The notes under the pieces are model-generated. The model was not told the DNA's origin and made no database searches. It saw only the letters and a program-made list of their open reading frames with translations. The position numbers and the translations under genes were made by a program. Shown in pieces: positions 515 to 29,290 of a DNA stretch of 64,000 bases. How positions within the stretch are numbered: position 1 is the first letter of the stretch; the number at the start of each line of letters is the position of its first letter. The stretch comes from a bacterium (GTDB lineage Bacteria; UBA8248), in assembly GCA_965199855.1 (NCBI GenBank), contig OZ241326.1, positions 2,211,908-2,275,907 of the forward strand. Direction: 5' to 3'.

Positions 515-4133
<3,619 letters not shown>

Positions 4134-4259: not shown

Positions 4260-6392
4260 TCATGTCCCTCCCGCCTCGACGGCTTCAATGAAGCGGGCGA
4301 GCTCCTCGCCGATGCCTTCCAGCTCGTTATTGTCTGTCGGTCTCCCCGCGGCGTCATAGCCGATATCCCCGGCTACCGCCATGAATACCGGAGAATCGCC
4401 CAATACGCTTCGCTTTCGCTCCGCATATTCCCGCTCCATGGTTTCCCGGAGCGCATCGATTTTTCCCCGGCATTCGGCGCCGACCCGCTTTTTCCATTCC
4501 CTATAGTCTTCGGACAGGCTCAACGCTTTGCCTTCCAGCCCTTCCGGATTGTCAAAGCCTCTGAGTTCCTTGATCCGCCGCTTCTTCTCCGCGTCAATCT
4601 CCCGCAACTGCTCCGGAAAATCATGCTCTTCCCTGATTTCGTCCCGTATCTCCGCTTTCCGGTTGCGGATCTCGGCGGTTGCTTCCGAAGTCCGCTTTTT
4701 CAGGAACAGCACCGAGGTTTTCACCCCCGCCCCTTTCGCCTGAAACGCGGTTTGGGGCATGGACGCCACCGCCACGAGGCGGAAATTCTCCTCCATGCCC
4801 TCCCGCGCGTATTGGAGGCTGGAGTTGGTCAGGATGCCGTCGGGTATGACGATCGCCAGATAGCCTCCCTCGGCGAGAAACCTGTGGCATTGCTCGATAA
4901 ACAGAATTTCGGAGCTCTGGCTGTCCCGGACTGTTTCCTTGCTCTTCGGGTTCAGCCAGTCGGCTTTCTTGAGCGCGTAATCGTAGTGGCGCATGTAGGC
5001 TTGCTCGGTTCGCTTGATCTGGGAGCCGAACGGCGGATTCGTGATGATGAAGTGGAAGCGTCCGTAAACGAATCCGTTGTTTCTCGTGAGAGAAAAAATA
5101 TCGTCAGCGGACATCAGCCCGTCGGCGGCGATCACGTTCGTATGGCCGTCATCGTGGAGAATCATGTTCATCTTGGCGGTTCTGGCGATTCGATCGTTGA
5201 TTTCGATGCCGAATATGTTTTTTTCCGCGAAGCTGCGCCAGTGCCTGTCATAGTCTCTTGATTCCGCCAGATCTGCTTCAAAATTCGGATAGTATTCACT
5301 CGCCTGCCGCCTGACCTTGTCAAGCGCGTGAAGCAGAAACCCGCCGCTGCCGCAGGAGGTATCCAGAACCAGCGAGTCATTGGTTATCGGCAGCGCGTCC
5401 ACGATGAACTTCACGATGGGGCGAGGGGTGAAGAACTGCCCGAACTCTCCACGAAAATAAGAACCCATGAAAGTTTCAAAGGCCTTGCCCCTGCTGTCCA
5501 GATCGGTTTTTCCAAAATCGACGCCTTCCAGATAGCCGACGACGGTGCGCAACTTTTCGCAGCCGAGGCGAATATCCTCCTGAAAGACTTCGGGGTCTTT
5601 TTGCCGCCCCTCGGCATACAGGGCGCGGACGCGCTTTTGCAGTCCCTTGTTCGTCTTGTCTTCCGTGCTTTCGGTGAACACCTGAAAATCGTAGGGTTCC
5701 CCCTTTCTCCTGGGCTTTTTCTCGTCCCACATTTTGCAGAAAATCAGCTTGTTCAACTCGTCGAAGGCTAGCGAGGGGTCGAGTTGCCCACCCCCCCAAA
5801 GCGCCTGATGCGCCTGTCTGAACCTTCTCGTCAGCGCGTCTTCCGTTATGGCTTCGAGCTCGAACAGCCTTTGTCCGTTGGCGGAACCCCCGCCCCGGGC
5901 GTATTTGAACCTGGCGAGCCGGCTGACGCCGTATTGCGGGATATCGGGAATGGGCAAGCGCTTCTTCGGCTCTTTTTCGGGAATCTCGAAGCAGGCGTCT
6001 TTTATTCGGGAGGTTACCCAGAAATACCTGGCCCGGACTGTTCCCGTGGCGGCGTAGCTGAAAGCCTGGGCGACGGCCTGCTCGAACTCGGCTTCGGAGA
6101 CGTCCTCCGCCTTGCACTCGACGACGATATGGGCGGATTCACGCTCATCGTCGTTATAGACGATAATATCCGCCTCTCTGGTGTCCGCGCCGATTTTTAC
6201 CGGAACGAACTGCTCTATGCGCTCCGGGGCGTAGCGATAAACCAGAACCAGTTTGAGGAACGTCTCCGCCTGGACGGACTCTTCCGGCCGCGCGTAATTT
6301 CGCCTCTTGCCCTGGCGAACGTAGGTGATGTATTTCCCGTCGTCATCAAACGCGATCAAGCCTTTGTCTATTCCTTCGCGCAACAGATCCAT
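4260..6392 (-). CDS. hsdM: Type I RM N6-adenine DNA methyltransferase HsdM, 710 aa, with an N-terminal HsdR_N-like PD-(D/E)xK domain and a C-terminal coiled-coil extension.
   Basis: N6_Mtase core with the ITNPPFG (motif IV, NPPF) and SAM-binding LDTSCGSGGFL (motif I). The first ~150 aa carry D…(D/E)xK (EADIIVYNDDERESAHIVVECK), resembling the HsdR N-terminal nuclease-like domain. No hsdR gene is adjacent. Confidence 0.85.
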   Translation of the reverse strand: MDLLREGIDKGLIAFDDDGKYITYVRQGKRRNYARPEESVQAETFLKLVLVYRYAPERIEQFVPVKIGADTREADIIVYNDDERESAHIVVECKAEDVSEAEFEQAVAQAFSYAATGTVRARYFWVTSRIKDACFEIPEKEPKKRLPIPDIPQYGVSRLARFKYARGGGSANGQRLFELEAITEDALTRRFRQAHQALWGGGQLDPSLAFDELNKLIFCKMWDEKKPRRKGEPYDFQVFTESTEDKTNKGLQKRVRALYAEGRQKDPEVFQEDIRLGCEKLRTVVGYLEGVDFGKTDLDSRGKAFETFMGSYFRGEFGQFFTPRPIVKFIVDALPITNDSLVLDTSCGSGGFLLHALDKVRRQASEYYPNFEADLAESRDYDRHWRSFAEKNIFGIEINDRIARTAKMNMILHDDGHTNVIAADGLMSADDIFSLTRNNGFVYGRFHFIITNPPFGSQIKRTEQAYMRHYDYALKKADWLNPKSKETVRDSQSSEILFIEQCHRFLAEGGYLAIVIPDGILTNSSLQYAREGMEENFRLVAVASMPQTAFQAKGAGVKTSVLFLKKRTSEATAEIRNRKAEIRDEIREEHDFPEQLREIDAEKKRRIKELRGFDNPEGLEGKALSLSEDYREWKKRVGAECRGKIDALRETMEREYAERKRSVLGDSPVFMAVAGDIGYDAAGRPTDNNELEGIGEELARFIEAVEAGGT

Positions 6393-6742
6393 TCGCTTCT
6401 CATTTTCAGGAGGGGCTCGACACTATACGGGGGACGGGAGGGCGGATTCGACCATGCCATGAAAGCGAACCCGGTCGCCCCTTCCATATCACGTTCGCGC
6501 GGCTGACGCCAACCCGATCGGCGGAAATTTTCGATTCCGATGGAGTTTCGCCCCTCGGCTGTGGTAGGGTGGCCGCGCGTCAGCGGGAGGCGCCGCCCTT
6601 GCTCTCGTCACAGCCGCTTCCCGGTTCTTCGCCCGCGAAACGGCGAACCGGCCCGAAAGGCCCGCCGCCCGCGCGCCGATGAGCAAAGTCCGCAGAATCA
6701 ACCCGTTGCGCTCTCCTCCCCCGGCCCGAGGCACGGCCCGCC

Positions 6743-7573
6743 ATGACGCGCCCCGCCAGACGAAGGCTCGGCCAGCATTTCCTGCACGAGAAGAGGTATC
6801 TCTCGCAAATCATTGATTTGGCTGAAATCGCGCCTGGAGAGGACGTGCTGGAAATCGGCGTCGGCGAAGGGGCGCTCACGCGCTTCCTCCTTGACGCGGG
6901 CGCGCGCGTCCACGGCGTGGAGATAGACGACGCGCTCATCCCCCCCCTGCGCTCCCTCGAAGCCGCCAGCGAGCGCTTCCGCCTGATTCACGCAGACGCC
7001 CTCGCCCTCGACTACGACGCGTTGCCCGCCAGGATGAAGGTGGCGGCGAACCTTCCCTACCAAATCGCATCAGGCATCATCCTGCAACTCATTGAAAAAT
7101 ATGAGAAATTTCCCTTCATGATCCTCATGGCGCAGCGCGAGGCGGGCGAGCGGATCTGCGCGGAGCCGGGCGGGAAGGACTACGGCGCGCTCACCCTGCG
7201 GGTGGGCTACCGCTTCGAGGCGCGGCTGTGCGGGACGGTTCCTCCGGGGGCGTTCCGCCCCCCGCCCGGGGTGGATTCCGCCCTCGTCCGCCTCAAGGCG
7301 AGAGAAGCCCCCCAGGTGGAGGTGGGGGACGAGAGCCTCTATTTCCGGCTCATCCGGGCGGGCTTCGCCCACCGCAGAAAGACGCTGCTCAACAATCTCA
7401 GGTCGCTGGATTCGGGCGGGCTTGAGAAAGGAGAGCGCCGGGGCTTGCGCCCGGAGGACTGGCGAGGTCTCCTCGAAGGGCTGGGAATCGACCCCGGAAG
7501 GCGCGCCGAGACCCTCTCGGCCGGCGAGTTCGCGCGAATCGCCCGCGCCGTCGAGTCGAGGGGGCGGCCTTGA
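6743..7573 (+). CDS. rsmA: 16S rRNA (adenine1518/1519-N6)-dimethyltransferase RsmA/KsgA.
   Basis: 276 aa. Contains GQHFL, VLEIGVGEGALT (SAM motif) and NLPYQI (motif IV), diagnostic of KsgA/Dim1. Confidence 0.9.
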   Translation: MTRPARRRLGQHFLHEKRYLSQIIDLAEIAPGEDVLEIGVGEGALTRFLLDAGARVHGVEIDDALIPPLRSLEAASERFRLIHADALALDYDALPARMKVAANLPYQIASGIILQLIEKYEKFPFMILMAQREAGERICAEPGGKDYGALTLRVGYRFEARLCGTVPPGAFRPPPGVDSALVRLKAREAPQVEVGDESLYFRLIRAGFAHRRKTLLNNLRSLDSGGLEKGERRGLRPEDWRGLLEGLGIDPGRRAETLSAGEFARIARAVESRGRP

Positions 7574-8475
7574 GCGGCGGAATCCTGATCTACCGCATGG
7601 GGGCGTTCGGGGACACGCTCCTGCTCGCGCCGCTGCTCGGACGCCTGCGGGAGGCGCGCCCGGGCGTTCGCCTCACCCTGGCGGCGAACCCCGCATACGC
7701 CGCTCCCCTGCTCGACGCGGGGCTGGCGGAGGAGATTCTGGACGGGGGCGCGCCTCCCTTTCATCTTCTCTATGACGGGCGGCCATCGGAGAACGACGCG
7801 CTCGCCCGGCTCATCCGGCGGCATGACGCCTGCGTCTTCTACACCGCCGACCGCTCGGGAGAGCTGGCGAGGCGGCTGCGTTCATCGAGGCCGGAGAAAT
7901 GCCGCGTCCACCCCCCTTTCCCGCCGGAGGGGGAGAGCGTTCACGTCTGCGCGTGGATGACGCGGGCGTGGCCCGGCCTGAGCGCGTCCGCGCCTGAAAG
8001 CATGAAGCTGACGCCTTCGGAAAACAGCCTGTCTGAGGCGGACAACCTATTGAAAAAAAATGGCTTGCGACCTTCCCGCTTCTTCATCCTCCATCCCGGC
8101 GGAGGGGGCGAGAGAAAATGGCCGCCGCCCGACGTTCTCGCGGAGATGGGCCGCGCCCTCGCGCGCGAAACGGGGCATCAGCCGGTCGTGGCGGAAGGGC
8201 CGGCGGATTCGATCGCCAGCGAGAATTTCCAGAAGCTCCCGGGCGCGCCCCTGCCGGTCCTCAGGGAAACGCCGCCCGTCATCCTGGGCGCCCTGCTCTC
8301 GAGGTCGTCCGGGTATATCGGGGGCGATTCCGGCGTCTCCCATCTCGCCTCTCTCTACGCGCCGCGCGCCTCGATACTGTATGGCCCCCATTCCGACATG
8401 AGGGTCTGGCGACCGATAGGCTCCCGAACGCGCTGCCTGTCCTGGGAGGCGGAGCGGAGGAGCGCGTTCGGGTGA
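7570..8475 (+). CDS. Glycosyltransferase family 9 (LPS heptosyltransferase-like).
   Basis: 301 aa. N-terminal ILIYRMGAFGDTLL and C-terminal …GYIGGDSGVSHLA are GT9 (RfaF/WaaC-like) hallmarks. The TTG start overlaps the rsmA stop (TTGA). Confidence 0.7.
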   Translation: MSGGILIYRMGAFGDTLLLAPLLGRLREARPGVRLTLAANPAYAAPLLDAGLAEEILDGGAPPFHLLYDGRPSENDALARLIRRHDACVFYTADRSGELARRLRSSRPEKCRVHPPFPPEGESVHVCAWMTRAWPGLSASAPESMKLTPSENSLSEADNLLKKNGLRPSRFFILHPGGGGERKWPPPDVLAEMGRALARETGHQPVVAEGPADSIASENFQKLPGAPLPVLRETPPVILGALLSRSSGYIGGDSGVSHLASLYAPRASILYGPHSDMRVWRPIGSRTRCLSWEAERRSAFG

Positions 8476-8558
8476 CGGCGCGATCGGCGCGCGTCGGGAG
8501 ATTTCCCGTCCCGCGGCGTTCATTCCGGCGGGGAGAGACTGCCGCGGCGCGGCGGGCC

Positions 8559-9269
8559 TCAGCCGAGGATGTTCGCCAGCCTGCCCCAGCGCGGCGAGCC
8601 CGAATCCCCGTTCCATGACCAGTAGATCATGAAGGCGGAGCCCCGAATCTTGTCGTCCCAGCAGGGCGCGGACCACAGCGAGCAGGGAAAGGGCAGGCCG
8701 AAGGAGTAATCCCAAAAGCGTATGGGGATGTGATCCGCGCGCTCGCCCACCTTCAGAAAGCCCCAGAAGCGGCTGTCCTGGCTGTTGTTGCGGTTGTCGC
8801 CCAGCATGAAGAGGTGGCCCGGCGGGACCTTGCGGGGGCCCCATTCGCTCTCGAGGCTCCCGGCGGCGCCGTTGGGCTTGAAGCGCGCGTATTTCTCCTC
8901 CAGCGGCTCGCAGTTTCGGGGCGCGTCCGGCGTCGCGCAGTTGATGAAGACCCTTTTTCCGCGAACCATCACCACCTCGCCCGGCAGCGCGACCACCCGC
9001 TTGATGAAGTCCCGCCGCTCATCCTTGGGAAAGCGGAACACGATGATGTCCCCGCGCCTCGGCTTCCGCAGCCAGTAGATGAACTTGTTGACGAGTATGT
9101 GGTCTCCGACGAGGAGGGTGTTCTCCATGGAGCCGGAGGGTATCTTGAACGCCTGCACGACGAAGGCGCGCACGAACAGCGCCAGCAGCAGGGCGATGAC
9201 GATCGCCTCGGCGTATTCCCGAAAAACGGATTTCGACTTTCGCCCGCGCCCCGCCTTCTCGTCCGACAC
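8559..9269 (-). CDS. lepB: Signal peptidase I (LepB).
   Basis: 236 aa. N-terminal TM segment, catalytic Ser box (IPSGSMENTL) and GDNRNNSQDSR box. Sits immediately downstream of lepA, the classical lepA-lepB arrangement. Confidence 0.9.
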   Translation of the reverse strand: MSDEKAGRGRKSKSVFREYAEAIVIALLLALFVRAFVVQAFKIPSGSMENTLLVGDHILVNKFIYWLRKPRRGDIIVFRFPKDERRDFIKRVVALPGEVVMVRGKRVFINCATPDAPRNCEPLEEKYARFKPNGAAGSLESEWGPRKVPPGHLFMLGDNRNNSQDSRFWGFLKVGERADHIPIRFWDYSFGLPFPCSLWSAPCWDDKIRGSAFMIYWSWNGDSGSPRWGRLANILG

Positions 9270-9273
9270 GCCC

Positions 9274-11076
9274 CTACTCCTTGCCCACGTCCAGAACCGC
9301 CATGAACGCCTCCTGGGGCACCTCGACGGTGCCGATGTTCTTCATGCGCTTCTTGCCCTCGCGCTGCTTTTCCAGCAACTTTCGCTTCCGCGTAATGTCG
9401 CCGCCGTAGCATTTCGCCGTAACGTCCTTCCGCAGCGCGCGAATCGTCTCCCGCGCGATCACCCGGTTGCCGACCGCCGCCTGAATGACCACCTCGAACA
9501 TCTGCTTCGGGATGATCTCCTTCATCTTCCGCACCAGCGCGCGGCCGTGATAATAGGCCTTCTCCTTGTGGATGATGGTGGAAAACGGGTCGATGGGCTG
9601 TCCGTTCAGCAGGACGTCCAGCTTCACCATCTCCGCCGGACGGTAGTCGAGGCGCTCGTAGTCGAAACTCGCGTATCCCCGGGAGGCGGACTTCAGCTTG
9701 TCGTAGAAATCGAAGAGTATCTCGCTGAAGGGCAGCTCATAGACGATCTGCACGGTATTCGTATCGATGTATTCCATGGAGCGCTGCGCGCCGCGCTTCT
9801 CCTGCGCCAGCCTGAGAACGCCGCCCACGTATTCGGCGGGCGCGAGGATGGTGCCCAGAATGAAGGGCTCCTCGATGGCCTCGATTCTCGACAGTTCGGG
9901 CAGCTTCGCGGGACTGTCGATTTCCGCGACCGTCGAATCGCTCAGCAGGACGCGGAAAATCACCGTCGGCGCCGTGATGATGAGCGTGAGGTCGTATTCG
10001 CGCTCGAGCCTCTCGCGGATGATCTCCATGTGCAGAAGCCCCAGGAACCCGCACCGGAAGCCGAACCCCAGAGCGACCGAGGTTTCCGGCTCGTAGGTGA
10101 AGGCCGAATCGTTGAGCCGGAGCTTCTCCAGCGCCGTCCTCAAGTCCTCATACTCGGCGCTGTCCGCCGCATACAGGCCGCTGTAGACCATCGCCTTCGG
10201 CTCCCGGAAGCCCTGAATGGCCTCGCGCGCGGGGTTTTTCGCCAGCGTGATGGTGTCGCCCACCCGGGTGTCGCTCACCTCCCGTATCGAAGCGGACAGG
10301 ATGCCCACCTCGCCCGGCCCGATTTCCTCTCTCCTGATCTCGCGGGGCGTGAACGCGCCCAGACTCAGCACCTGGTATTCCTTGCCGGTGGCCATGAAGC
10401 GGACGCCGTCGCCCTTGCGAATGGTTCCCTCGAACATGCGAAACAGCGGGATGGCGCCCTGGTAGGAATCATACCAGGAATCTATCACGAGCCCCCGCGG
10501 GGAGGCTTCCGGCTCTCCGCCCGGAGGCGGAATCCGCTCCACGATCGCCTCGAGGAGCGCGTCCACGCCCTCCCCCTGCTTCGCGCTCACCGTCAGGCAC
10601 TCCTCCGCGGCGATGCCGATGACGTCCTCCACCTGCCGCATCACGCGATCGGGGTCGGCCGCCGGCAGGTCGATCTTGTTGATCACCGGTATGATGACCA
10701 AGTCCTGCTCCAGCGCCAGATAGGCGTTCGCCATCGTCTGCGCCTGGATGCCCTGGGTGGCGTCAACGAGCAGCAGGGCGCCCTCGCAGGCCTGGAGGCT
10801 TCGGGAAACCTCGTAGCTGAAGTCCACGTGGCCGGGCGTATCGATGAGGTTGAAGACGTATTCCCCGCCCTTCGGCGACCTGTAGAGGATGCGGACCGTG
10901 GCCGCCTTGATGGTGATGCCCCGCTCCTGCTCCAGCGCCATCGAATCCAGCACCTGGGAGGACATCTCGCGCTCTGAAAGCGCTCCCGTCGTTTCGAGAA
11001 TGCGATCCGCCAGGGTGGATTTTCCATGGTCGATATGCGCGATGATGGAAAAGTTTCTGATTCTCTCGATGCTCAC
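9274..11076 (-). CDS. lepA: Elongation factor 4 (LepA).
   Basis: 600 aa. [21 protein letters not shown]-domain, [12 protein letters not shown], and the LepA-specific C-terminal domain. Confidence 0.95.
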
Positions 11077-11362
11077 GGCCGGGAAAAATCTCTCAGGGAA
11101 GGCGAATGGCGCGAATGCCGGAACCGCGTGACGTCAGCTGAAAGCACCGCCCCTCACCTTCGGTTCCCGCGCGGATGACGAAAAGCGACGCCGAAAGAGG
11201 CGCTGAACCCCCCGGCATCGGGCGAACACGCTATATCAGACTTCTCCGCGCCCGGTCAAATGGATTGCCCCCCGGGAACGCGCGGTGCTAGGATGCGCGA
11301 AGGGGCGCGCCTCGCTCACCCGCGCGCATTTCGCACCCGACGGAGCGGGATACCTTCAGCCC

Positions 11363-12760
11363 ATGCGTCGCCGCGGCCGAGACACCCTCATCCGCTTTTC
11401 CCTGCTGTCCGCCTTCGTCCTGTGCGCGCCGCCCGCGTCGGCGGAGAAGGAGCGCCCCTTCGGCGGACGCCTCATCATCGAAGCGGTCAGGAAGCTGCGG
11501 CCCTCCGTCGCGCATATCCGCGCGAAGCCGGGAGGCGCCGCGGCGAATCCCCTGCTCGACTTCTTCGGCAGGGGCAGGCGAAGGGAGGGCCCGCCCCGGT
11601 TCGATCAGGACGAGGCCGCCTACGGCGTAGGCGCGGGGATCATCGTCTCGAAAGAAGGGCACATCCTGACGAACCACCACGTCGTCAGGAACGCCCAGGA
11701 GATTCTGGTCAAACTCCACCGGGGCGAGGAATTCCCGGCCCGCCTGCTCGGCGTGGACGAGAAAACCGACCTCGCCCTCCTGAAGATCAAGCCTCCCGCG
11801 GACCTCCGGCCGGCAACTCTCGGCGATTCCGACAAAGCGGAGGTCGGCCAGTGGGTTCTGGCGATCGGCAGCCCTTTCGGCCTGGCGAATTCCGTATCCG
11901 TAGGCGTCATCAGCGGCAAGGAGCGGGATTTGAAGGAAGGCCCCTTTGACGAGTATCTCCAGACGGACGCCTCCATCAACCCGGGCAATTCCGGCGGGCC
12001 GCTCGCCGACGCGAAAGGCGCCGTCATCGGCGTCAACACGGCGATATTCTCCCGCGGCTCGCGCGCCTGGAGCCTGGGCGTCGGCTTCGCCATTCCGATA
12101 AACCAGGCCAGGGCCGTCATCGACTCCCTGCGCCACAGGGGCTATCCGATACGGGGCCGGCTGGGGGCGGCCGTGGCCGCCGTCCCCCCGAAGGAGGGGA
12201 AAGACCTGGGGCTGGCCCGCTCCCAGGGCGCGAAGCTCGCCGAGGTCGCGCGCGGCGGCCCCGCCCACCACGCCGGCCTGCGCCGGGGGGACGTGGTGGT
12301 CGAATTCGACGGCAAGCCGGTGAGCACCTGGCAGAGCCTTCCCCGCATCGTCGCCCGCGCGAAGCCGGATTCCCTCGTCCAGGTGAAGTTTTACCGCGAA
12401 AAGCGCCTGGAGAGCGTCTATGTCCGCCTGGGGAGCCGGCCCGAGGCGCCGCATTCCCGAAAGACGCCGGGCCGGACGAGCCTGGGCATGAAGGTCGAGG
12501 CGCTCACCCCGCACCTCGCCCGCCGCTTCGGGCTGGATTACGGCGAGAGCAAACTGGTGGTTTCCTCGATTCTGCGGGGCGGGGCGGCGGAGCGCGGCGG
12601 AATCAGGCCGGGCGACGAGATAGCGGAAGCGAACCACAAGCCCGTCCGGACGATAGAGGAGCTTCGGGAGGCCATCGACGCGTCCCGGCTCGACGGCTTC
12701 GTCCTCCTCCTTCTCAAGCGAAAAGGAACCAACCTCTTCGCCGCCCTCCAAATCAAATAG
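11363..12760 (+). CDS. htrA: Periplasmic serine endoprotease DegP/HtrA (trypsin domain plus two PDZ domains).
   Basis: Catalytic triad context (HILTNHHVV; DLALLKI; GNSGGPL). Two C-terminal PDZ-like regions. Signal peptide after MRRRGRDTLIRFSLLSAFVLCAPPASA. ORF track starts at 11285; the preferred ATG is at 11363. Confidence 0.85.
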   Translation: MRRRGRDTLIRFSLLSAFVLCAPPASAEKERPFGGRLIIEAVRKLRPSVAHIRAKPGGAAANPLLDFFGRGRRREGPPRFDQDEAAYGVGAGIIVSKEGHILTNHHVVRNAQEILVKLHRGEEFPARLLGVDEKTDLALLKIKPPADLRPATLGDSDKAEVGQWVLAIGSPFGLANSVSVGVISGKERDLKEGPFDEYLQTDASINPGNSGGPLADAKGAVIGVNTAIFSRGSRAWSLGVGFAIPINQARAVIDSLRHRGYPIRGRLGAAVAAVPPKEGKDLGLARSQGAKLAEVARGGPAHHAGLRRGDVVVEFDGKPVSTWQSLPRIVARAKPDSLVQVKFYREKRLESVYVRLGSRPEAPHSRKTPGRTSLGMKVEALTPHLARRFGLDYGESKLVVSSILRGGAAERGGIRPGDEIAEANHKPVRTIEELREAIDASRLDGFVLLLLKRKGTNLFAALQIK

Positions 12761-13113
12761 CGCCTTCAGGACAGGCCCGGGCCGGCGCCCGCCGAACGGA
12801 CGGCTTTCGCAGGGACAACCCCCGTGGTTGTCCCTCGCCGCGTTCGCGTCCCGACGACGCGCAACCATCCCGTAGGGGGCGTTCGGGAACGCCCCGCCGC
12901 CGCCGATGCGAATCTTTCCTGAAAACGGGCGGCCCCGGGGCCCCGCCCTTGCGGAACCGGCGCCCATGGGCGACCCACCCAAACGGGCGGTTCCCGAATT
13001 GCGGGGCGGCCTCGGGGAGGGGTCGCCCCTACGGAACCGTCGCCATCTCCCGCCGTCATTCCGGCGAAGGCCGGAATCCAGGGGATTGTGATCGTTCCCC
13101 ATCGTCAATGAGA

Positions 13114-13835
13114 GACAACCATAGGGGGTTGTTCCTGCGAAATGATGAAACCCGCGGCCCCATGCCGAAGGACGGGCGGGGCGCATGAATGCGCCCCCTA
13201 CGAAGGCGGGATCGCCGCCCGCCCCCGGAAAACCGGTTGCCTCGACCGTAGGGGACGCATTCATGCGTCCCGTTTCGATCGGTGGCCACGCGCGGGCGGT
13301 TCACGAACCGCCCCTACGGGAACCGTAGCCGCCCTCACCCATAGGGACGCCCCCCTGGGTCGCCCGACAATTCGGGAGCCGCCCGCGCGGGAAAATTCGC
13401 CGGGCGGAGGCGTTTCCCCGGGCGTTTGGAGAAGAACCGCCCGCTCGCCGAAAAGCCGCGCGTGAATGTCTACGAATTTCTGCAAAATCAGACAAATTCA
13501 CGGCCTTATCCCGCAAATAGAGAGCTGTTTTCCACCTTTTTAGAGACCCCTTTGACCATCCCGCCCGGTCCCCGATTCTTCCGTCTTCCTTCCCTCCGGA
13601 GGCGCAATTCCCCCACGCCGGAAATATAACCCGACCCGGCCGCCCCCGCGGAAGCGCAGATGCGCGCAAATGCGGGCAGGCGCGCGCGATTGTTCCACGT
13701 GGAACAATTCGGACGCGGAATTTTCGGAGGAAGCGTCCGGTTTTCGGCGCGGCCGCCGCTCCGCAAGCCTCGAAAAGGCGCGGTTCGCCCCGCCCGGCTC
13801 CGCTTTGCTGGCCATGCCCGCCGCCTACGCGCCGG
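13114..13835. repeat. Inverted repeat copy A (~722 bp), non-coding, hairpin-rich. Partner is at 20006..20726.
   Basis: Six-frame ORFs here have reverse-complement twins of identical amino-acid sequence in the 19970..20579 region (for example 13261..13485(-) = 20355..20579(+); 13426..13629(+) = 20211..20414(-)). That gives ~99-100% nucleotide identity in inverted orientation. Confidence 0.85.
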
Positions 13836-13952
13836 GAGGCTTCCGTCCCGCGCGCGCCGCCTCCGCCTGATTGACATTCGGGCGTGGTGTCGTAATCTGC
13901 GGGGCGTTTCGGGGCTACACGGGAGCGGACGAACGGACGGCGGGGAGCGGAC

Positions 13953-14603
13953 ATGAAGATTTTCATCGATACGGCGAGTCTGGAGGAAATCGAGGAGGCG
14001 GCCTCCACCGGCATCCTGGACGGCGTGACGACGAACCCCTCGCTCATCGCGAAGGAAGGCGCCGACCACCACGCGAGAATCAGGGAAATCTGCGGGCTGG
14101 TGGACGGGCCGGTGAGCGCGGAGGTGATCGCCGTGAAGTGGGAGGAGATGGTCGAGGAGGGGCGGGCGCTGGCCGCCATCCACGAGAACGTGGTGGTGAA
14201 GGTTCCGGTGGGCGTGGAGGGGCTGCGCGCCGTCAAGGCGCTGCGCGAGGAGAGCGTCGACACGAACGTCACCCTCATCTTCAGCCCCGCCCAGGCCATG
14301 CTGGCGGCGAAGGCGGGCGCCTCGTTCGTGAGTCCCTTCGTGGGGCGGCTGGACGACGTCTCAAACCCCGGCATGGAGATGGTGAGCGACATCGCCCGGA
14401 TTTTTCACAACTACGACTACGCCGCCCAGGTTCTGGTGGCGAGCGTGCGCTCGCCGATTCACCTGCTCGAGGCGGCGAAGATGGGGGCGGACGCGGCGAC
14501 GGTTCCCTTTCAGGTCATCGCCCAGCTGCTCAAGCATCCGCTGACGGATATCGGGCTGGAGAAATTCCTGGCGGACTGGCGCCGCGCCGGCGAGATGCGC
14601 TGA
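13953..14603 (+). CDS. tal: Transaldolase (short Tal / fructose-6-phosphate aldolase family).
   Basis: 216 aa. [13 protein letters not shown]…TTNPSL…VKVP, with the catalytic Lys context typical of small transaldolases. Confidence 0.9.
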
Positions 14604-14622
14604 CTTTCAGGGAGGTTCAGGG

Positions 14623-14853
14623 ATGATGCCGATGTATGAATTTCTGTGCGGAAGCTGCGAGAAGGATTTTGAGAAAATCGTGGCGTCCGTCGAGGCCGCC
14701 GACCGCGTGGAGTGTCCCGAATGCGGCTCGCGCGAGGCGCGCCGGAAACTCTCCCTGTTCGCCAAATCCGCATCGGGCGCCGCGGCCCAGGCCTCGGCCT
14801 TCAGCGGCTACTCCGCCGGCGGCGGCTGCGGCGGGGCGTGCTCGTGCCACTAG
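14623..14853 (+). CDS. FmdB-family zinc-ribbon protein (putative regulatory).
   Basis: 76 aa. CGSC…CPECG double CxxC zinc ribbon at the N-terminus, with a Gly/Ala/Cys-rich tail. Confidence 0.65.
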   Translation: MMPMYEFLCGSCEKDFEKIVASVEAADRVECPECGSREARRKLSLFAKSASGAAAQASAFSGYSAGGGCGGACSCH

Positions 14854-14937
14854 CCCCGCGGGGGCGCTGAATCCGCGCTTCCGCCGGGCCGATTCGCGCG
14901 CGATCCTTCGGGAATCTTTCAGCAGGGAGGAGAGACC

Positions 14938-16188
14938 ATGCCGCAAGAGGAGCAGGTCAGCGTCTTCGAGACCGCGAGCGCGCAGTTCGACGAGGCGGCG
15001 GCGCACGTCGATCTGGACGATGAGGTTCGCCACCTCCTCAAGACGCCCTTCCGCGAGGTGAAGGTAGAAATCCCCATCCGCAGGGACGACGGCTCTCTCG
15101 GCGTCTGGGAGGGATACCGCATCCAGTTCAACGGCGCGCGGGGGCCGTTCAAGGGCGGAATCCGCTACCACCACGAGGTGGACCCGGACGAGGTGCGCGG
15201 CCTCTCCGCGCTCATGGCGTGGAAGACGGCGCTCGTCAACATTCCGTTCGGGGGCGGCAAGGGCGGCATCTGCGTCAACGTGGGGGAGCTCAGCCGCTTC
15301 GAGCTGGAGCGGCTCACGAGAAAATACACCGCGCGCATCGGGCGCGTCCTGGGGCCCTACCGCGACATTCCCGCCCCCGACGTGAACACGAACGCGCAGG
15401 TGATGGCGTGGATTTTCGATGAATACAGCAGCCGCCACGGCTACGCGCCGGCCTGCGTCACGGGAAAGCCCGTGTCCATGGGCGGCTCCCCGGGGCGCGA
15501 GGCCGCCACCGGGCGGGGCGCCGTGATGGCGTTCGGGGAGGTCGCCAAAAAGGAGGGCTGGGAGCCCGCCACCATGACGGCGGCGATTCAGGGCTTCGGG
15601 AACGTGGGCGCCTTCGCCGCCAGGTTCATCGGCGATCTGGGGGTGAAGGTGGTGGCGATATCGGGCAGCCGGGGCGCCTGCTTCAACGGGGACGGCGTCG
15701 ACGTCGAGGCGGCCGCCGCCCACCGCAGGGAGCACGGGACGCTGGAGGGCCTCGCGGGAGCGGAGGAGATCACCAACGAGGAGCTTCTCGCCCTCGACGT
15801 GGACGTCCTGGTTCCGGCGGCTCTCGGCGGCGCGATTCACGCGGGCAACGCGGCGGACGTGAAGGCGCGCGTCATCGTGGAAGGGGCGAACGCTCCCGTA
15901 ACCGACCGGGGCGAGAAGACGCTGGCCGAGAGCGGCCGCGTCGTGGTGATACCCGACGTGCTGGCGAGCGCGGGCGGCGTCACGGTCTCCTACTTTGAAT
16001 GGGCGCAGAACATCCAGCAGTTCGCCTGGGACGAGGAGCGGGTGAACGCCGAGCTGGGCAGAATCATGGCGCGCGCCACGGCCGAGGTGCATGAGCTGGC
16101 GAAGGAGAAAGGCGTCTCGCTGCGCGCGGCGGCCTTCATCATCGCGATTGAAAGGGTGGCGGAGGCGGAGCGCCTTCGCGGCGTATAG
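14938..16188 (+). CDS. Glutamate dehydrogenase (Glu/Leu/Phe/Val dehydrogenase family).
   Basis: 416 aa. KGGIRYH, NIPFGGGKGG (active-site Lys box), and a GFGNVG Rossmann motif. Confidence 0.9.
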   Translation: MPQEEQVSVFETASAQFDEAAAHVDLDDEVRHLLKTPFREVKVEIPIRRDDGSLGVWEGYRIQFNGARGPFKGGIRYHHEVDPDEVRGLSALMAWKTALVNIPFGGGKGGICVNVGELSRFELERLTRKYTARIGRVLGPYRDIPAPDVNTNAQVMAWIFDEYSSRHGYAPACVTGKPVSMGGSPGREAATGRGAVMAFGEVAKKEGWEPATMTAAIQGFGNVGAFAARFIGDLGVKVVAISGSRGACFNGDGVDVEAAAAHRREHGTLEGLAGAEEITNEELLALDVDVLVPAALGGAIHAGNAADVKARVIVEGANAPVTDRGEKTLAESGRVVVIPDVLASAGGVTVSYFEWAQNIQQFAWDEERVNAELGRIMARATAEVHELAKEKGVSLRAAAFIIAIERVAEAERLRGV

Positions 16189-16214
16189 CGTCCGCCGCCC
16201 CGCTGGAGCTTTCG

Positions 16215-17129
16215 TTGGCTGGTCTCGTCATAGACGCCCGGGGCATCGAAAAATCCTTCGGAACCCTCCGGGCCGTCGCCGGCGTCTCGCTCCAGGTGGA
16301 GCCCGGAGAGTGCTTCGGCATTCTGGGCCCCAACGGCGCGGGCAAAACCACGACAATCAAGATGCTGCACGGCGCCGTTCAGCCCGACGCGGGCGTCCTG
16401 CGGGTGCTCGGCCTCGACGTGGCGACCCAGAGCCGGCTCGTTCGGGAGGGGATGGGCGTCGTATCGCAGGAGGACACGCTGGACCGCGATTTGACGGTAT
16501 ATGAGAACCTCTGGGTCTATGCGGGATTTTTCGGCATCTCGAGGAAGGCGTCGCTCTCCCGCATCGAGCATCTGCTCGACTTCCTGCAGCTTCGGGAAAA
16601 GTGGGACTCGAAGATCAAGACCCTCTCGGGCGGAATGAAGCGCCGCCTCCACATCGCGCGCGCCCTGATCCATGAGCCGAAGTTCCTGATTCTGGACGAA
16701 CCCACCACGGGCCTCGATCCGCAGGCGAGGCATCTCGTCTGGCGCAGGCTCCGGGAGCTCGGCGACCGGGGGCTGACCATTCTTCTCACCACCCATTACA
16801 TGGAAGAGGCGGCGCGGATGTGCGATCGCATCGGCATCATGGACGGGGGGAGATTTCTTCTCGAAGGCGCGCCGCAGGCGCTGGTGCGCGAACATGTGGG
16901 CGATGAGGCGTATGAACTCAAGGGCGGCGCGCCGCGGGAACTGCTCGACTCCCTGAAAAGCCTCCACGTCGGCGCCGAGGTCGCCGCGGACAGGCTGTAT
17001 CTCTACAGCCGCAACGGAGCGGGGCTGATGGAGCGCCTGATCGCCTCGGGGCGGAAGGATTTTCTGAGAAGGCCCGCGACCCTGGAGGATTTGTTCCTGC
17101 GGCTCACGGGCAGGGAATTGAGGGATTGA
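16215..17129 (+). CDS. ABC transporter ATP-binding protein (ABC-2 / NodI-DrrA type).
   Basis: Walker A GILGPNGAGKTT, signature LSGGMKRRL, Walker B LILDEPTTGLD. Confidence 0.85.
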   Translation: MAGLVIDARGIEKSFGTLRAVAGVSLQVEPGECFGILGPNGAGKTTTIKMLHGAVQPDAGVLRVLGLDVATQSRLVREGMGVVSQEDTLDRDLTVYENLWVYAGFFGISRKASLSRIEHLLDFLQLREKWDSKIKTLSGGMKRRLHIARALIHEPKFLILDEPTTGLDPQARHLVWRRLRELGDRGLTILLTTHYMEEAARMCDRIGIMDGGRFLLEGAPQALVREHVGDEAYELKGGAPRELLDSLKSLHVGAEVAADRLYLYSRNGAGLMERLIASGRKDFLRRPATLEDLFLRLTGRELRD

Positions 17130-17902
17130 CGCTCCTCCCCCAGGCTCCGAGCCGCCGCGCCCTCCGCGTCTGGGTTCGCCATCTGGTCTATTACCGCTCC
17201 TTCTATCTGGCGGAATGGGCGGGCAATCTGGGGGAGCACGTTCTGTGGCTCGTGGCGTTCGGCTACGGGCTGGGCAGGCTGGTGCCGAGCCTGGACGGCG
17301 TCTCATACGCGCAGTTCATCGGCCCCGGGCTGATGGTTTCCGTCGCGATGTGGAACGCGACGTATGAATCCACCTACGGCGCCTATTCGAGAATGCGGAT
17401 TCAGAACATCTACGAGTCCATGCTGATGGCCCCGCTCACGGTGGGCGACATCGTGCTGGGCGATCTTCTCTGGTGCGCGAGCCGCGCGCTGATCGGCTCG
17501 ACGCTGATGCTGCTCGTCCTGAGCCTGTTCGGGCTGGTCGGCTCGTGGTGGGCGGCGGCGATCCTTCCGGTTCTGTTCGTCGAGGCGGTGATGTTCGCGG
17601 CCCTGGGGCTGATCGCGACCTCGCTGGCGCCCAGCTTCTCGTTCTTCAACTTTTACTTCTCCGCCGTCGTCATGCCCATGTTTTTCTTCGCGGGCGCCCT
17701 GTTTCCCATCAAGGGCCTGCCGGCGTGGGTGGAGCGCATATCCGACGCCCTCCCGCTGACCCACGCCGTGAGAATCTCGCGCGGCCTGTTCCTTTACGGG
17801 CGGGTCGAGCATTTTCTCTGGCACTTTTCCTTCCTGCTCGGCTTCACGCTCCTGTTTCTCGCGGTCGCCTGCTTTCTGGTGGGCAGGCGCATGGCGGAAT
17901 GA
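17126..17902 (+). CDS. ABC-2 family transporter permease.
   Basis: 258 aa, six predicted TM helices, ABC-2 (NodJ-like) architecture. Start overlaps the ATPase stop. Confidence 0.75.
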   Translation: MTLLPQAPSRRALRVWVRHLVYYRSFYLAEWAGNLGEHVLWLVAFGYGLGRLVPSLDGVSYAQFIGPGLMVSVAMWNATYESTYGAYSRMRIQNIYESMLMAPLTVGDIVLGDLLWCASRALIGSTLMLLVLSLFGLVGSWWAAAILPVLFVEAVMFAALGLIATSLAPSFSFFNFYFSAVVMPMFFFAGALFPIKGLPAWVERISDALPLTHAVRISRGLFLYGRVEHFLWHFSFLLGFTLLFLAVACFLVGRRMAE

Positions 17903-18870
17903 GCGTGGGCGCCGCGGCGAAAATCCTGCATCCGCCGGAGCCGTTCCTGTTCCATGAGAGTCTGCTGCGCTTTCGCGCGTCGAGCGGGGAGCTCGTCAAT
18001 TCCTACGCGGACGGGGCGTATCGCAGGGTGGTGGAGACCGCCGCCGGCGCGCTGGTTCTCCTGGAGGCCAGGAGCGGGGAGGAGGGGCGAGGCGGCCCGA
18101 TTCGGCTTCAGATGACCGCCGAGGGACGGATGAGCGAATCGCTCCAAGGCGCGGGGCTGGACGCCATCAGGCACATTCTGGCTTTTGATCTCGATTTGAA
18201 GCCGTTTTACGGGATGGCGGGGCGCGACGCCGACCTGGCGCCGATTGCGAGGAAATTCAGGGGTCTCAGGCCGGTGCGCTACCCGAGCGCGTTCGAGGCG
18301 CTCGTTACGGCGATTACGGCGCAGCAGGTGAACCTGACCTTCGCCGGGACGATACGCGGGCGCATGGTGAAGCGATGGGGCGGAAAGCTGCGCGTCGGCG
18401 GACGGACGCGCTACGCCTTTCCGCGCCCGGAGCGCCTGGCGCGGGCGCGCGTCTCCACCCTGCGCGCCATGCAGTTCTCGGAGCGAAAGTCGGAATACGT
18501 GATTGGCGTGGCGCGCGCCGCCCTGGAAGGACGGCTGGACGAGGGCGAGCTGCGCGCTCTGCCCGTTGAGGAGGCGGTGGCCCGGCTCGCCGGAATACGG
18601 GGCGTGGGCCGCTGGACGGCGGAGCAGACGCTGTTTCGGGCGCTTGGCCGCGTGGAGGTTTTCCCCGGGGGCGACCTGGGGGTGCGGAAGGTCGTGGCGC
18701 GCTATTGCTTCGGAGAGGAGCGCGTGGACGAGGAGCGCGCGCGCGGGCGGGCGGACGCATGGCATCCCTGGGCTTCGCTGGCGACGACCTATCTGTTCGC
18801 CGCGTGGCGCGCGGGCGTTGCGCCCGCGGGCGAAGCGAAACGGCGCATCGGGAATCGGGCGCGCGGATGA
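17899..18870 (+). CDS. DNA-3-methyladenine glycosylase II-like (AlkA / HhH-GPD base-excision glycosylase).
   Basis: 323 aa from MSVGAAAKIL… HhH-GPD region (…LAGIRGVGRWTAEQTLFRALGR… with catalytic Asp context …FPGGDLG…). The ATG overlaps the permease stop (ATGA). The ORF track lists a longer out-of-frame-overlapping 17473 start that is unlikely. Confidence 0.7.
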   Translation: MSVGAAAKILHPPEPFLFHESLLRFRASSGELVNSYADGAYRRVVETAAGALVLLEARSGEEGRGGPIRLQMTAEGRMSESLQGAGLDAIRHILAFDLDLKPFYGMAGRDADLAPIARKFRGLRPVRYPSAFEALVTAITAQQVNLTFAGTIRGRMVKRWGGKLRVGGRTRYAFPRPERLARARVSTLRAMQFSERKSEYVIGVARAALEGRLDEGELRALPVEEAVARLAGIRGVGRWTAEQTLFRALGRVEVFPGGDLGVRKVVARYCFGEERVDEERARGRADAWHPWASLATTYLFAAWRAGVAPAGEAKRRIGNRARG

Positions 18871-20015
18871 GCGGCTTTCGGGCCTCCATCGAACGGCGGG
18901 AAGAAGAGCTGCTGGCGCCCTGCGCGGCGCGCAGCGCCGAGAGTCTCGGGCGAAGGCACCCGGAAGCCGAGCACGGGATGCGGACGGCGTTTCAGCGCGA
19001 TCGCGACCGGATCATCCACACGCAGGCCTTCCGGAGGCTTGAATACAAGACCCAGGTCTTCGTGAACCACGAAGGGGACCATTACCGGACGCGCCTGACG
19101 CACACCATAGAGGTGAGCCAGATCGCGCGCTCCATCGCCCGCGCGCTCTCCCTGAACGAAGACCTCGCCGAAGCGGTCGCGCTCGCGCACGATTTGGGCC
19201 ACCCCCCCTTCGGCCACGCCGGGGAGAAGGTTCTGGACGCCCTCATGGAGGAGCGCGGCGGGTTCGAGCACAACCTGCAGGCGCTGCGGATCGTCGAGGC
19301 GCTGGAGAGGCGCTACCCCGCCTTTCCGGGCCTGAACCTGACGTGGGAGACGCGCGAGGGAATCATCAAGTATCTGGATCGCTATGACGGCCCGATGCCC
19401 CGGGGGCTGACGAACGCGATCGCCCCCGGCCTGGAGGCCCAGGTGGTCGACGCGGCGGACGAGATCGCCTACAACAACCACGACCTGGACGACGGCCTCT
19501 CCTCCCGGCTGTTCGGCCTTGAAGACTTGCGGGACGCCCGCCTTTGGCGCGAACACCACGAAAACTCGAAGAAAGCCTTTCCCGAAGCTCCCCGGCGGGA
19601 GCGCAAGCACGACGTCATCCGCCGCATCATCAACGCGCAGGTTCAGGACATCATCGCGTCCGCGCGCGAGCGCGTTCGGCGCCGGGGGCTGCGCCGCATC
19701 TCGGACGTGCGGGAAGGCGGGCATGACGCGGTTGTCTTCAGCGAGGAGATGCGCGGGAAGAACGCCGAGCTCAAGCGCTTCCTGATGGAGCGGATGTACC
19801 GGAACGAGCGGGTGCTGAGACTGGAGGAAAGCGCCCGGGAAACGCTGAGCGGGCTGTTTCGCCTCTACGTCGCCGAGCCTCGCAGGATACCGGAGCACGC
19901 CCGCAGGCGCGAGGAAACGGACGGCCGGCATCGAATGGTCTGCGACTACGTCGCCGGCATGACGGACCGCTACGCCCTCCAGCAGCACGAGCGGTGGCTG
20001 GGCGCCGGCGCGTAG
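18867..20015 (+). CDS. dgt: dGTP triphosphohydrolase-like protein (HD domain).
   Basis: 382 aa from MSGFRASIERR… Contains RTRLTHTIEVSQIARSIA and HDLGHPPFGH (HD motif) in a Dgt-like fold. The ATG overlaps the alkA-like stop (ATGA). The 3' end runs ~10 nt into IR copy B. Confidence 0.85.
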   Translation: MSGFRASIERREEELLAPCAARSAESLGRRHPEAEHGMRTAFQRDRDRIIHTQAFRRLEYKTQVFVNHEGDHYRTRLTHTIEVSQIARSIARALSLNEDLAEAVALAHDLGHPPFGHAGEKVLDALMEERGGFEHNLQALRIVEALERRYPAFPGLNLTWETREGIIKYLDRYDGPMPRGLTNAIAPGLEAQVVDAADEIAYNNHDLDDGLSSRLFGLEDLRDARLWREHHENSKKAFPEAPRRERKHDVIRRIINAQVQDIIASARERVRRRGLRRISDVREGGHDAVVFSEEMRGKNAELKRFLMERMYRNERVLRLEESARETLSGLFRLYVAEPRRIPEHARRREETDGRHRMVCDYVAGMTDRYALQQHERWLGAGA

Positions 20016-20726
20016 GCGGCGGGCATGGCCAGCAAAGCGGAGCCGGGCGGGGCGAACCGCGCCTTTTCGAGGCTTGCGGAGCGGCGGCCGCGCCGAAAAC
20101 CGGACGCTTCCTCCGAAAATTCCGCGTCCGAATTGTTCCACGTGGAACAATCGCGCGCGCCTGCCCGCATTTGCGCGCATCTGCGCTTCCGCGGGGGCGG
20201 CCGGGTCGGGTTATATTTCCGGCGTGGGGGAATTGCGCCTCCGGAGGGAAGGAAGACGGAAGAATCGGGGACCGGGCGGGATGGTCAAAGGGGTCTCTAA
20301 AAAGGTGGAAAACAGCTCTCTATTTGCGGGATAAGGCCGTGAATTTGTCTGATTTTGCAGAAATTCGTAGACATTCACGCGCGGCTTTTCGGCGAGCGGG
20401 CGGTTCTTCTCCAAACGCCCGGGGAAACGCCTCCGCCCGGCGAATTTTCCCGCGCGGGCGGCTCCCGAATTGTCGGGCGACCCAGGGGGGCGTCCCTATG
20501 GGTGAGGGCGGCTACGGTTCCCGTAGGGGCGGTTCGTGAACCGCCCGCGCGTGGCCACCGATCGAAACGGGACGCATGAATGCGTCCCCTACGGTCGAGG
20601 CAACCGGTTTTCCGGGGGCGGGCGGCGATCCCGCCTTCGTAGGGGGCGCATTCATGCGCCCCGCCCGTCCTTCGGCATGGGGCCGCGGGTTTCATCATTT
20701 CGCAGGAACAACCCCCTGTGGTTGTC
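20006..20726. repeat. Inverted repeat copy B (~721 bp), reverse complement of 13114..13835.
   Basis: Mirrored ORF set identical in amino-acid sequence to copy A. Boundaries were located by manual alignment: inner ends at ccggcgcgtagg, outer ends at the GACAACC…GGTTGTC hairpin. Confidence 0.85.
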
Positions 20727-20760
20727 CTTCGCCGCGTTCGCCAGTCCGGGCGTTTCCCCC

Positions 20761-21042
20761 TTACCCGAACCGCCCGGCATTCAGCCGCCAATAGACCTCC
20801 GTCCCCTTGAGCGCGGCGTTCTCTTTGGCGTGATGCCACGGCGTCTTGCCCTCTTTATCCTCCGCCGCGGGATCGGCTCCGGCGGCGAGCAACGCTTCCG
20901 CGACCGCGGGGGTTTTGCTGAACTTCGCCGCCGCCACATGCAGGGGCGTCCGTCCATCCTTGATCCGCGCGTTCGGGTTCGCCCCGGCGGCGAGCAAGCC
21001 TCCTCCGCCGCCCGCTCCCCCGCCGAAGAAGAAGTAAGGCAT
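20761..21042 (-). CDS. Small ankyrin-repeat protein.
   Basis: 93 aa. DGRTPLHVAA…AEALLAAGADPAAEDKEGKTPWHHA matches two ANK repeat consensus units, followed by a Gly-rich tail. Confidence 0.65.
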   Translation of the reverse strand: MPYFFFGGGAGGGGGLLAAGANPNARIKDGRTPLHVAAAKFSKTPAVAEALLAAGADPAAEDKEGKTPWHHAKENAALKGTEVYWRLNAGRFG

Positions 21043-29252: not shown

Positions 29253-29290
29253 CTTCGGGGCGAAGGCCGCCGGCCTGCCGGCCGCGCGCG

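Follow-up and report, generated by a model that had tools for sequence, protein, structure and literature searches.

Probable Homologous Recombination between Inverted Duplicates of tal-Upstream DNA Flanking a Seven-Gene Operon in an Uncultured UBA8248 Bacterium

A 64,000-nucleotide (nt) stretch of contig OZ241326.1 (assembly GCA_965199855.1), referred to here as the window, derives from a bacterium of the GTDB lineage UBA8248 and contains a pair of long, non-coding inverted repeats that flank a seven-gene operon running from tal to dgt. The two repeat arms, copy A and copy B, are nearly identical, and the segment between them lies in the opposite orientation to its counterpart in related species. 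These features are most probably explained by homologous recombination between inverted duplicates of the DNA upstream of tal, comprising an old duplication, gene conversion between the duplicates, and inversion of the DNA that they enclose.

In this mechanism, the non-coding regulatory DNA natively present upstream of the tal operon would have undergone an old inverted duplication, with one copy being retained upstream of tal and the other being set, inverted, at the 3' end of dgt, the last gene of the operon. The resulting arms would be long enough to pair by general homologous recombination of the RecA type. Pairing without crossover would lead to gene conversion and homogenise the arms, and pairing with crossover would invert the 6.2-kb operon. 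The window carries the derived, inverted orientation, in which tal lies beside degP and dgt faces a gene for an ankyrin protein.

The Repeat Arms and the Enclosed Operon

The arms and the genes between them, the latter assigned by Pfam searches and gene calls, are as follows.

13114-13835, + strand: copy A of the repeat (outer end 13114, inner end 13835), between degP and tal
13953-20015, + strand: seven-gene cassette tal...dgt, with an order conserved in relatives and inverted here
13953-14603, + strand: tal
14623-14853, + strand: zinc-ribbon gene (Zn_ribbon_8)
14938-16188, + strand: gdh
16215-17129, + strand: ABC ATPase of an ABC-2 transporter
17126-17902, + strand: ABC-2 permease
17899-18870, + strand: HhH-GPD glycosylase
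18867-20015, + strand: dgt
20005-20726, - strand: copy B of the repeat (inner end 20005, outer end 20726), between dgt and the ankyrin gene
13871-13898, + strand: likely promoter of the tal operon, TTGACA-N16-TAATCT, 36 nt from the repeat and inside the cassette (sequence reading and alignment)

A repeat search and direct comparison showed the arms to be reverse complements separated by 6169 nt, and base-by-base comparison gave an identity of 721/722 without gaps, in keeping with the near-identical reverse complements reported in an initial annotation of this DNA. The sole mismatch, T at 13122 versus C at the mirror position 20718, falls within the loop of a terminal hairpin, at a distance of 9 nt from the outer end. 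The arm boundaries are sharp, since the flanking sequences past both ends are unrelated. Such uninterrupted homology (722 nt, 721 of them matching) is far above the minimum for RecA pairing. The initial annotation had placed copy A correctly and had estimated the arm size well, at about 720 bp, but its start for copy B requires correction from 20006 to 20005. Its AT-richer core was confirmed (GC content of 0.555-0.57 versus about 0.68), and the comparison of the window against itself that it had recommended found just these two copies within the 64 kb.

The cassette genes agree with those listed previously (tal, a zinc ribbon, gdh, an ABC-2 exporter, an alkA-like gene and dgt), and the portion of dgt lying within copy B, formerly put at about 10 nt, is actually its 3' terminal 11 nt (20005-20015), with the TAG stop codon included. 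The left flank consists of lepB (-), lepA (-) and degP (+); the right flank, all on the - strand, consists of a short ankyrin gene, a gene for an 86-amino-acid TRASH-like protein, a DUF3465 gene, carB, and carA. The TTGACA-N16-TAATCT sequence upstream of tal is conserved in outgroups. A consensus scan of positions 12700-14000 found no promoters or terminators, and this sequence went unscored in it. Since the predicted tal promoter is situated within the cassette, it would travel with the operon on inversion.

Recurrence of the Repeat in Independent Assemblies

Loci from independent assemblies were retrieved by exact-protein look-ups. Contigs L005-L007 (6171-6173 nt) end exactly at the inner arm boundaries, and contigs from the degP side (L178 and L179) and from the carB side (L091-L096, L188, and L190) enter the repeat and then stop. 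The long-read-style contig L097 is 99.77% identical to positions 1-14702 of the window and crosses degP, copy A, and tal, and L184, part of a circular 3,033,334-nt contig of the same species with 118x coverage, contains both copies, positioned and ordered as in the window. The four types of junction were all found again in independent assemblies and are also carried by the spanning contigs L001, L097, and L184; the junctions are reproduced by contigs from at least 15 other samples. Look-ups with the 86-amino-acid TRASH-like protein, LepB, the protein P0001, the zinc-ribbon protein, and the DUF3465 protein yielded many flank contigs ending in the repeat, with L097 and L184 as the only spanning contigs, and exact-protein look-ups with the ankyrin and DegP sequences returned no record. 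In the JGI metagenomes, a 28-nt repeat-core pattern had no match and the best match to tal was 76% identical, indicating that the species is absent there. Likewise, the best match to Dgt among GTDB species genomes was 80% identical, indicating its absence from that collection as well, although this search did supply outgroups.

In metagenome assembly, long repeats that match almost perfectly are a frequent cause for suspicion, and a check for repeat collapse had been advised from the outset. That one copy is an assembly artefact, whether a collapsed or a chimeric repeat, can nevertheless be dismissed with near certainty: the junctions occur in contigs from those other samples, and the circular long-read contig has the two copies, diverged in sequence, at matching positions, so that these independent assemblies refute an artefact.

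Inversion of the tal-dgt Segment

The ancestral orientation of the operon is provided by seven outgroup loci, which represent at least four related species, those named here being L011, L012, and L180-L183. The Dgt proteins of L011 and L012 are 80% and 78% identical, respectively, to that of the window, and L180-L183 were found through DegP homologues that are 72-74% identical. At all seven loci, tal...dgt is convergent with degP, followed by lepA-lepB, so that dgt adjoins degP. In the window, L097, and L184, by contrast, degP is followed by tal, and the segment between the arms has therefore been inverted. None of the five outgroup loci checked (L011, L012, and L180-L182) possesses such a repeat pair.

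Within the species, the other orientation is found in L001, a 15-kb short-read scaffold from a different strain (sample SAMN12290236), which contains no Ns and presents the ancestral order Ank-repeat-tal...dgt-repeat-degP with both repeats. Its difference from the window is exactly the orientation of the inter-arm segment, with the breakpoints inside the arms. Arrangements that differ just by the orientation of the DNA between two copies are what non-allelic homologous recombination (NAHR) produces, and within the species L001 is the one locus that supplies the contrast. The proposal in the initial annotation that recombination between the arms would invert the tal-dgt segment is thus supported, both against the seven outgroup loci and against L001. 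Base composition offers a further hint, as the mean coding-strand GC skew of the cassette (0.078) matches that of minus-strand genes (0.077) rather than plus-strand genes (0.019; cassette versus plus-strand genes, P = 0.047); the cassette thereby has the skew of the opposite-strand gene class, which weakly suggests a recent flip. Deducing the orientation of unresolved samples from the linkage of repeat haplotypes to flanks was attempted and abandoned, as the haplotypes are too mosaic (L178 versus L184).

Gene Conversion between the Copies

Comparison among strains reveals that the arms have exchanged sequence. In L184, copies A and B differ by 111 mismatches and 88 gap columns over 753 columns. 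Over the inner 604 nt, both window copies are identical to L184 copy A, and over the outer ~100 nt they show 5/96 differences from L184 copy B versus 20 mismatches and 9 gaps relative to copy A. The window copies are thus a mosaic of the L184 A and B sequences, indicating that the inner part of copy B was overwritten by A and the outer part of copy A by B. The substitutions that distinguish L097 from the window lie in the outer repeat, where L097 has kept an A-type, unconverted segment; given that L097 is 99.77% identical to the window over 14.7 kb yet still A-type in this outer part, the outer conversion step must have been very recent. In L001, the copies are 727/728 identical to each other, 89.5% identical to those of the window, and carry markers of the other type; its cassette matches that of the window at 99.3% identity and its flanks at 99.1%. 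Judging from these markers, conversion ran in opposite directions in different strains. The window/L184 mosaic, L097, and L001 together display the sequence exchange and concerted evolution that characterise NAHR.

The strong divergence of the L184 copies, in the same species, shows that the duplication is old and that the identity of the arms stems from gene conversion. Non-crossover pairing, by copying sequence between the arms, would account for arms that match at 721 of 722 positions here though diverged in L184. Of the two explanations for this identity in the initial annotation, namely recent duplication or gene conversion, only gene conversion is therefore retained, on the basis of the L184-type mosaic.

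Conversion may also have reached into the adjacent gene. The third-last residue of Dgt is Ala (GCC) in the window and L004 and Val (GTC) in L001, L003, and L184, and the base responsible (within window positions 20004-20006) sits at the repeat boundary, with the window base making the repeat one base longer. A conversion tract overrunning the old boundary by one base may thus have altered the coding sequence of dgt.

Composition of the Repeat

The sequence features of the repeat and its surroundings, including units that resemble repetitive extragenic palindromic (REP) elements, are listed below; where no strand is given, none applies.

12761-13113: spacer between degP and copy A, containing motif M and REP-like units and abutting the derived outer junction of copy A
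12805-12850, + strand: motif M, 46 nt (terminal hairpin plus CTCGCCGCGTTCGC), just downstream of degP
13114-13135 (mirror 20705-20726): terminal hairpin GACAACC-loop-GGTTGT at the outer repeat end (direct reading and comparison)
13157-13380 (mirror 20460-20683): block of REP-like palindromes (e.g., GGGGCGCATGAATGCGCCCCCTACG) in the outer half of the repeat
13461-13520 (mirror 20320-20379): AT-rich core, an imperfect palindrome CGTGAAT...ATTCACG with GCAAAAT, GACAAAT, and CGCAAAT boxes
13690-13707 (mirror 20133-20150): perfect 18-bp palindrome TTGTTCCACGTGGAACAA, unchanged in every strain and confined to the repeat
20700-20745, + strand: motif M at the ankyrin-side junction of copy B, spanning the outer boundary, downstream of the ankyrin gene

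The repeat does not code for protein. Pfam gave no match to any of five open reading frames (ORFs) inside it, gene callers predicted no gene within it on related contigs, and the indels that distinguish strains (1, 2, 4, 8, and 11 nt) are not multiples of three, all of which supports its earlier description as non-coding and free of a transposase. An RNA gene was also considered and ruled out: Rfam searches at gathering and permissive thresholds produced only sub-threshold noise in the repeat, with nothing near threshold, its fold z-scores were unexceptional (-1.4 and +0.3), and RNAalifold found compensatory changes at 0 of 75 predicted pairs.

The outer half of the repeat has the character of dispersed REP-like units, namely clustered, intergenic, strain-variable palindromes with a shared motif, and this holds for the outer half only. 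The motif common to these palindromes, CCCCTACG, occurs 11 times in the window versus 1.4 expected, with 8 of the 11 occurrences at this locus. The units are present, absent, or replaced across the window, L178, and L184. For example, the degP-side repeat of L178 (L178:11477-12124) is without the 225-nt block of three REP-like units (window 13157-13380), and copy B of L184 contains different units; repeat length consequently varies by strain, from about 500 nt in L178 to 722-728 nt. A related unit was found in the outgroup L180. Just outside the repeat, a palindromic unit, CGTCATTCCGGCGAAGGCCGGAATCCAG (window 13054-13085), is shared with the related species of L180, where it forms an inverted pair (L180:19306-19449), and its distribution marks it as a putative lineage-wide dispersed REP-like element.

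The remaining blocks are far more stable. The AT-rich core is identical in all haplotypes, and both the core and the TTGTTCCACGTGGAACAA block are fully conserved even between the diverged L184 copies. The core is likely a regulator-binding region, as predicted from its sequence, and TTGTTCCACGTGGAACAA is a candidate operator. Reading of the core sequence revealed no convincing match to DnaA boxes or sigma-54 sites. Finally, the motif M copies at 12805-12850 and 20700-20745 form a direct repeat of about 89% identity. These two motifs bracket the entire repeat-cassette-repeat region, and a truncated, inverted M constitutes the outer end of copy A. Candidate roles for motif M are as a terminator, a REP-type element, or a breakpoint hotspot.

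Native and Derived Copies

The outgroups allow the two copies to be polarised. In L180, a 52-nt motif (…CGATAAATATCGATAAATTCACGG…CGATAAAT…) precedes tal and, in inverted form, ksgA/icd; L011 carries the motif too, and the core in the window (…TGCAAAATCAGACAAATTCACGG…CCGCAAAT…) is the same motif. The corresponding sites are L180:5329-5380 and 17889-17940, L011 at about 17330-17400, and window 13461-13520. BLASTN of the repeat against outgroup tal-upstream DNA found nothing and global alignment was unconvincing, so that the homology lies solely in this short core motif. The presence of the motif in outgroup tal-upstream DNA indicates that the tal-side copy A is the native upstream region. At the other end of the operon, Dgt terminates in ...ERWLGAGA here versus ...ERWLDA and ...ERWLGS in outgroups, and copy B provides the last three codons and the stop of dgt. 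This extension by repeat sequence indicates that the native stop was replaced and that the dgt-side copy B is derived. With respect to the outer junctions, that of copy B on the ankyrin side looks native, as motif M runs 19 nt beyond the copy B boundary, and that of copy A on the degP side is truncated at the hairpin base.

Relatives have a conserved AT-rich motif with phased GAYAAAT boxes both upstream of tal and in the icd-ksgA interval; the window species has retained it only inside the repeat. Its placement suggests a regulator common to the tal operon and to genes of the tricarboxylic acid cycle or ksgA. The tal-upstream region of relatives also has a variable content of toxin-antitoxin and defence-like genes (HigA/HigB, ParD, and others; L011:931-4344, L012:343-648, and L180:18602-20325), which identifies this side of tal as a hotspot of gene turnover across the lineage. 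The ankyrin gene beside copy B (20761-21042) is hypervariable as well, with a junction at about 20982-20988. About 1.1 kb present in L184 (16334-17466), L093, L094, and L096 is missing from the window and L001, and comprises a longer ankyrin gene, a DUF6338 gene, and a 45-amino-acid ORF. In L091, the ankyrin version has about 485 nt of additional ankyrin repeats (L091:10364-10849).

These comparisons also bear on whether the 722-nt unit could be a non-autonomous mobile element that inserted twice to give a structure like a composite transposon, for example one resembling a miniature inverted-repeat transposable element, one derived from an insertion sequence (IS), or one mobilised by a REP-associated transposase. 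The strain-variable REP-like units of the outer half would be in keeping with such an origin, as would the hairpin at which the unit starts and which recurs in the separate 46-nt motif near degP. However, a mobile element is very unlikely given that neither the repeat nor the window ORFs scanned encode a transposase, that the ends of the unit are not inverted repeats (the outer GACAACC... and the inner ...CGCGCCGG are unrelated), that no target-site duplications surround either copy, and that just two copies are found in 64 kb. In addition, its core is homologous to the resident tal-upstream DNA of relatives, and the cassette is syntenic with degP-lepA in relatives.

Repeats as Cause or Footprint of the Inversion

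Several observations weigh against recombination between pre-existing repeats as the source of the inversion. Every long-read-style contig recovered carries the orientation of the window, and the ancestral order within the species has been seen in one short-read scaffold only, L001, whose 728-nt repeat may exceed the library insert size and whose copies could be identical partly through assembler collapse. The GC-skew test is a weak one, with seven genes and a P value of about 0.05. The dependence on RecA would be carried over from other organisms, namely from tuf and kan cassettes in Salmonella (PMC8262849). Finally, the original inversion could have given rise to the repeats, instead of being caused by them.

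The last point can be developed into a full alternative, in which the repeats are a footprint: one inversion, through staggered breaks or replication template switching at the terminal hairpin, would simultaneously have duplicated the tal-upstream region at the other breakpoint. The orientation would have been fixed since, L001 would be mis-resolved, and the copies would have undergone conversion but no inversion afterwards. Such a single event would turn the outgroup arrangement straight into that of the window. It predicts native Ank-repeat and repeat-tal junctions and new junctions between the repeat and dgt and between the repeat and the degP spacer, which is the pattern observed, and copy A breaks off at its outer junction precisely at the hairpin base. 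The uniform orientation of the long-read-style contigs L097 and L184 and the breakage of most short-read assemblies at the repeat are likewise in line with it. We nonetheless consider it rather unlikely. L001 contains no Ns and represents a separate strain, distinguished by a repeat haplotype of its own and by a 260-amino-acid permease variant, and scaffolders of the SPAdes type normally stop at such a repeat rather than guess, as happened in other samples. The GC skew suggests a young orientation, whereas the strongly diverged L184 copies indicate that the duplication is old. Furthermore, conversion tracts of at least 600 nt show that the arms do pair, and, in the systems tested in PMC8262849, crossover accompanies a fraction of such events. 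As for whether duplication and inversion arose in the same event or separately, the junction pattern of the footprint explanation fits a same-event origin, which is possible.

Probable Recombination Mechanism and Consequences

Homologous recombination between the duplicates, the explanation preferred here, is favoured by the length of the arms (722 identical bases), by mosaic tracts whose ends vary, and by the lack of a recombinase or transposase, none of which was detected among the ~45 window ORFs scanned against Pfam; together, these point to the general homologous recombination machinery. A programmed phase-variation inverton with a dedicated site-specific recombinase would share the general layout, in which a segment is bounded by inverted repeats, and the invariant palindromes in the repeat could be regarded as its candidate protein-binding sites. 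This is nevertheless a most improbable description of the locus. The arms measure 722 nt, not tens of bases, and no serine or tyrosine recombinase was found by Pfam within 10 kb, among the window ORFs scanned, or in the flanking genes of L097, L178, and L184. As the promoter moves with the operon, flipping gives no on/off switch, and mosaic conversion tracts with variable ends are the signature of homologous and not site-specific exchange.

Both flanks converge on the cassette, so that, in either orientation, tal follows a co-directional gene and dgt faces a convergent one. Given these converging flanks and an operon with its own promoter, the inversion is probably a near-neutral structural polymorphism, the main change being the direction of the operon relative to the carA-carB run. 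The inversion may be reversible, and ongoing flipping in the population is plausible in light of the single short-read scaffold L001. It is also conceivable, although quite improbable, that the mirror modules at both ends of the operon (the GAYAAAT-box core plus TTGTTCCACGTGGAACAA) represent a selected architecture and not a passive repeat. If so, a regulator bound at both ends might bring about looping or insulation of the operon, or antisense transcription running into dgt, and homologous flipping would serve as a population-level switch of operon orientation with respect to replication and neighbouring transcription.

Other Features of the Window

A restriction-modification system, consisting of an N6_Mtase/Eco57I-type enzyme and a specificity subunit, is located between icd and ksgA at about 2840-6400 of the window. 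It is also present at L097:8330-11881 and L178:1569-5096 and is absent at that position in the outgroups L180 and L181. An Rfam PyrR binding site (29291-29399, - strand; 56.3 bits versus a gathering threshold of 54) lies just upstream of a phosphoribosyltransferase-family gene (28716-29318), a probable pyrR, that heads a run of pyrimidine biosynthesis genes. Finally, the window contains two sets of tandem paralogues: acyl-CoA dehydrogenase genes at 40695-41921 and 41934-43103, with 75-87% nucleotide identity over most of their length, and zinc-type alcohol dehydrogenase genes at 55752-56726 and 56759-57787, with a 166-nt stretch at 75% identity.

Comparison with Known Systems

The closest parallels come from inverted repeats that recombine by homology. 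In Salmonella, according to PMC8262849, the inverted tufA and tufB genes undergo RecA/RecB-dependent conversion, 8-25% of events invert the intervening DNA, and the same conversion and inversion behaviour has been measured with kan test cassettes; for tufA/tufB, that paper cites Abdulkarim and Hughes (1996) and Hughes (2000). As with tufA/tufB (about 1 kb in length), the present locus has two inverted copies on one chromosome that co-evolve by conversion and enclose a segment that has been inverted. Unlike tuf, an essential gene whose copies are hundreds of kb apart, the copies here are non-coding regulatory DNA only 6.2 kb apart, the inverted unit is a single operon, and RecA/RecB dependence would hold by analogy. 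Likewise, the human Y chromosome palindromes, such as P6, are described in PMC3723533 as having an arm identity above 99.9% through conversion, multi-kb tracts, and occasional inversion of the spacer. P6 resembles the present locus in having inverted arms, homogenised by conversion, around a unique spacer, and the eukaryotic palindromes differ in that their arms span tens to hundreds of kb, whereas here L184 still holds unconverted, diverged arms.

Invertons such as Hin, Gin, FimBE, and those of Bacteroides also consist of a segment that is bounded by inverted repeats and occurs in two orientations. Unlike the present locus, they have short repeats (about 10-50 bp) and a dedicated recombinase, and they usually flip a promoter or the end of a coding sequence, none of which applies here. 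For plastids, Palmer is said to have described flip-flop recombination of the inverted repeat in 1983. The plastid repeats are 10-25 kb in length, contain rRNA genes, and give rise to two isomers that coexist equally in one organelle population. Their likeness to the present arms lies in large inverted repeats that recombine, produce two orientations, and are kept identical; the coexistence of isomers is established for plastids, which sets them apart.

In Drosophila, Ranz and colleagues reportedly found in 2007 that inversions with inverted duplications at their breakpoints arise from staggered breaks, and intramolecular replicative transposition of IS elements can likewise give an inversion with inverted duplications. 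In such cases, as here, inverted copies of a sequence that was ancestrally single-copy and located at one breakpoint flank the inverted segment, and the junctions at the present locus fit. Unlike IS-driven inversions, however, no IS or transposase is involved here.

Significance

The locus illustrates a known process in nature with good resolution and introduces no new mechanism. For metagenome assembly, it serves as a warning, as nearly all short-read assemblies break here and the orientation of a 6-kb unit needs long reads. It also provides a small natural test case of how the ends of conversion tracts can rewrite the C-terminus of a neighbouring gene. Taken as a whole, the locus displays, in an uncultured bacterium related to Nitrospinota/Tectomicrobia metagenome-assembled genomes, the full life cycle of an inverted duplication, from its origin in the upstream region of an operon, through divergence of the copies and conversion in both directions, to inversion of a housekeeping operon, with different strains capturing different stages.

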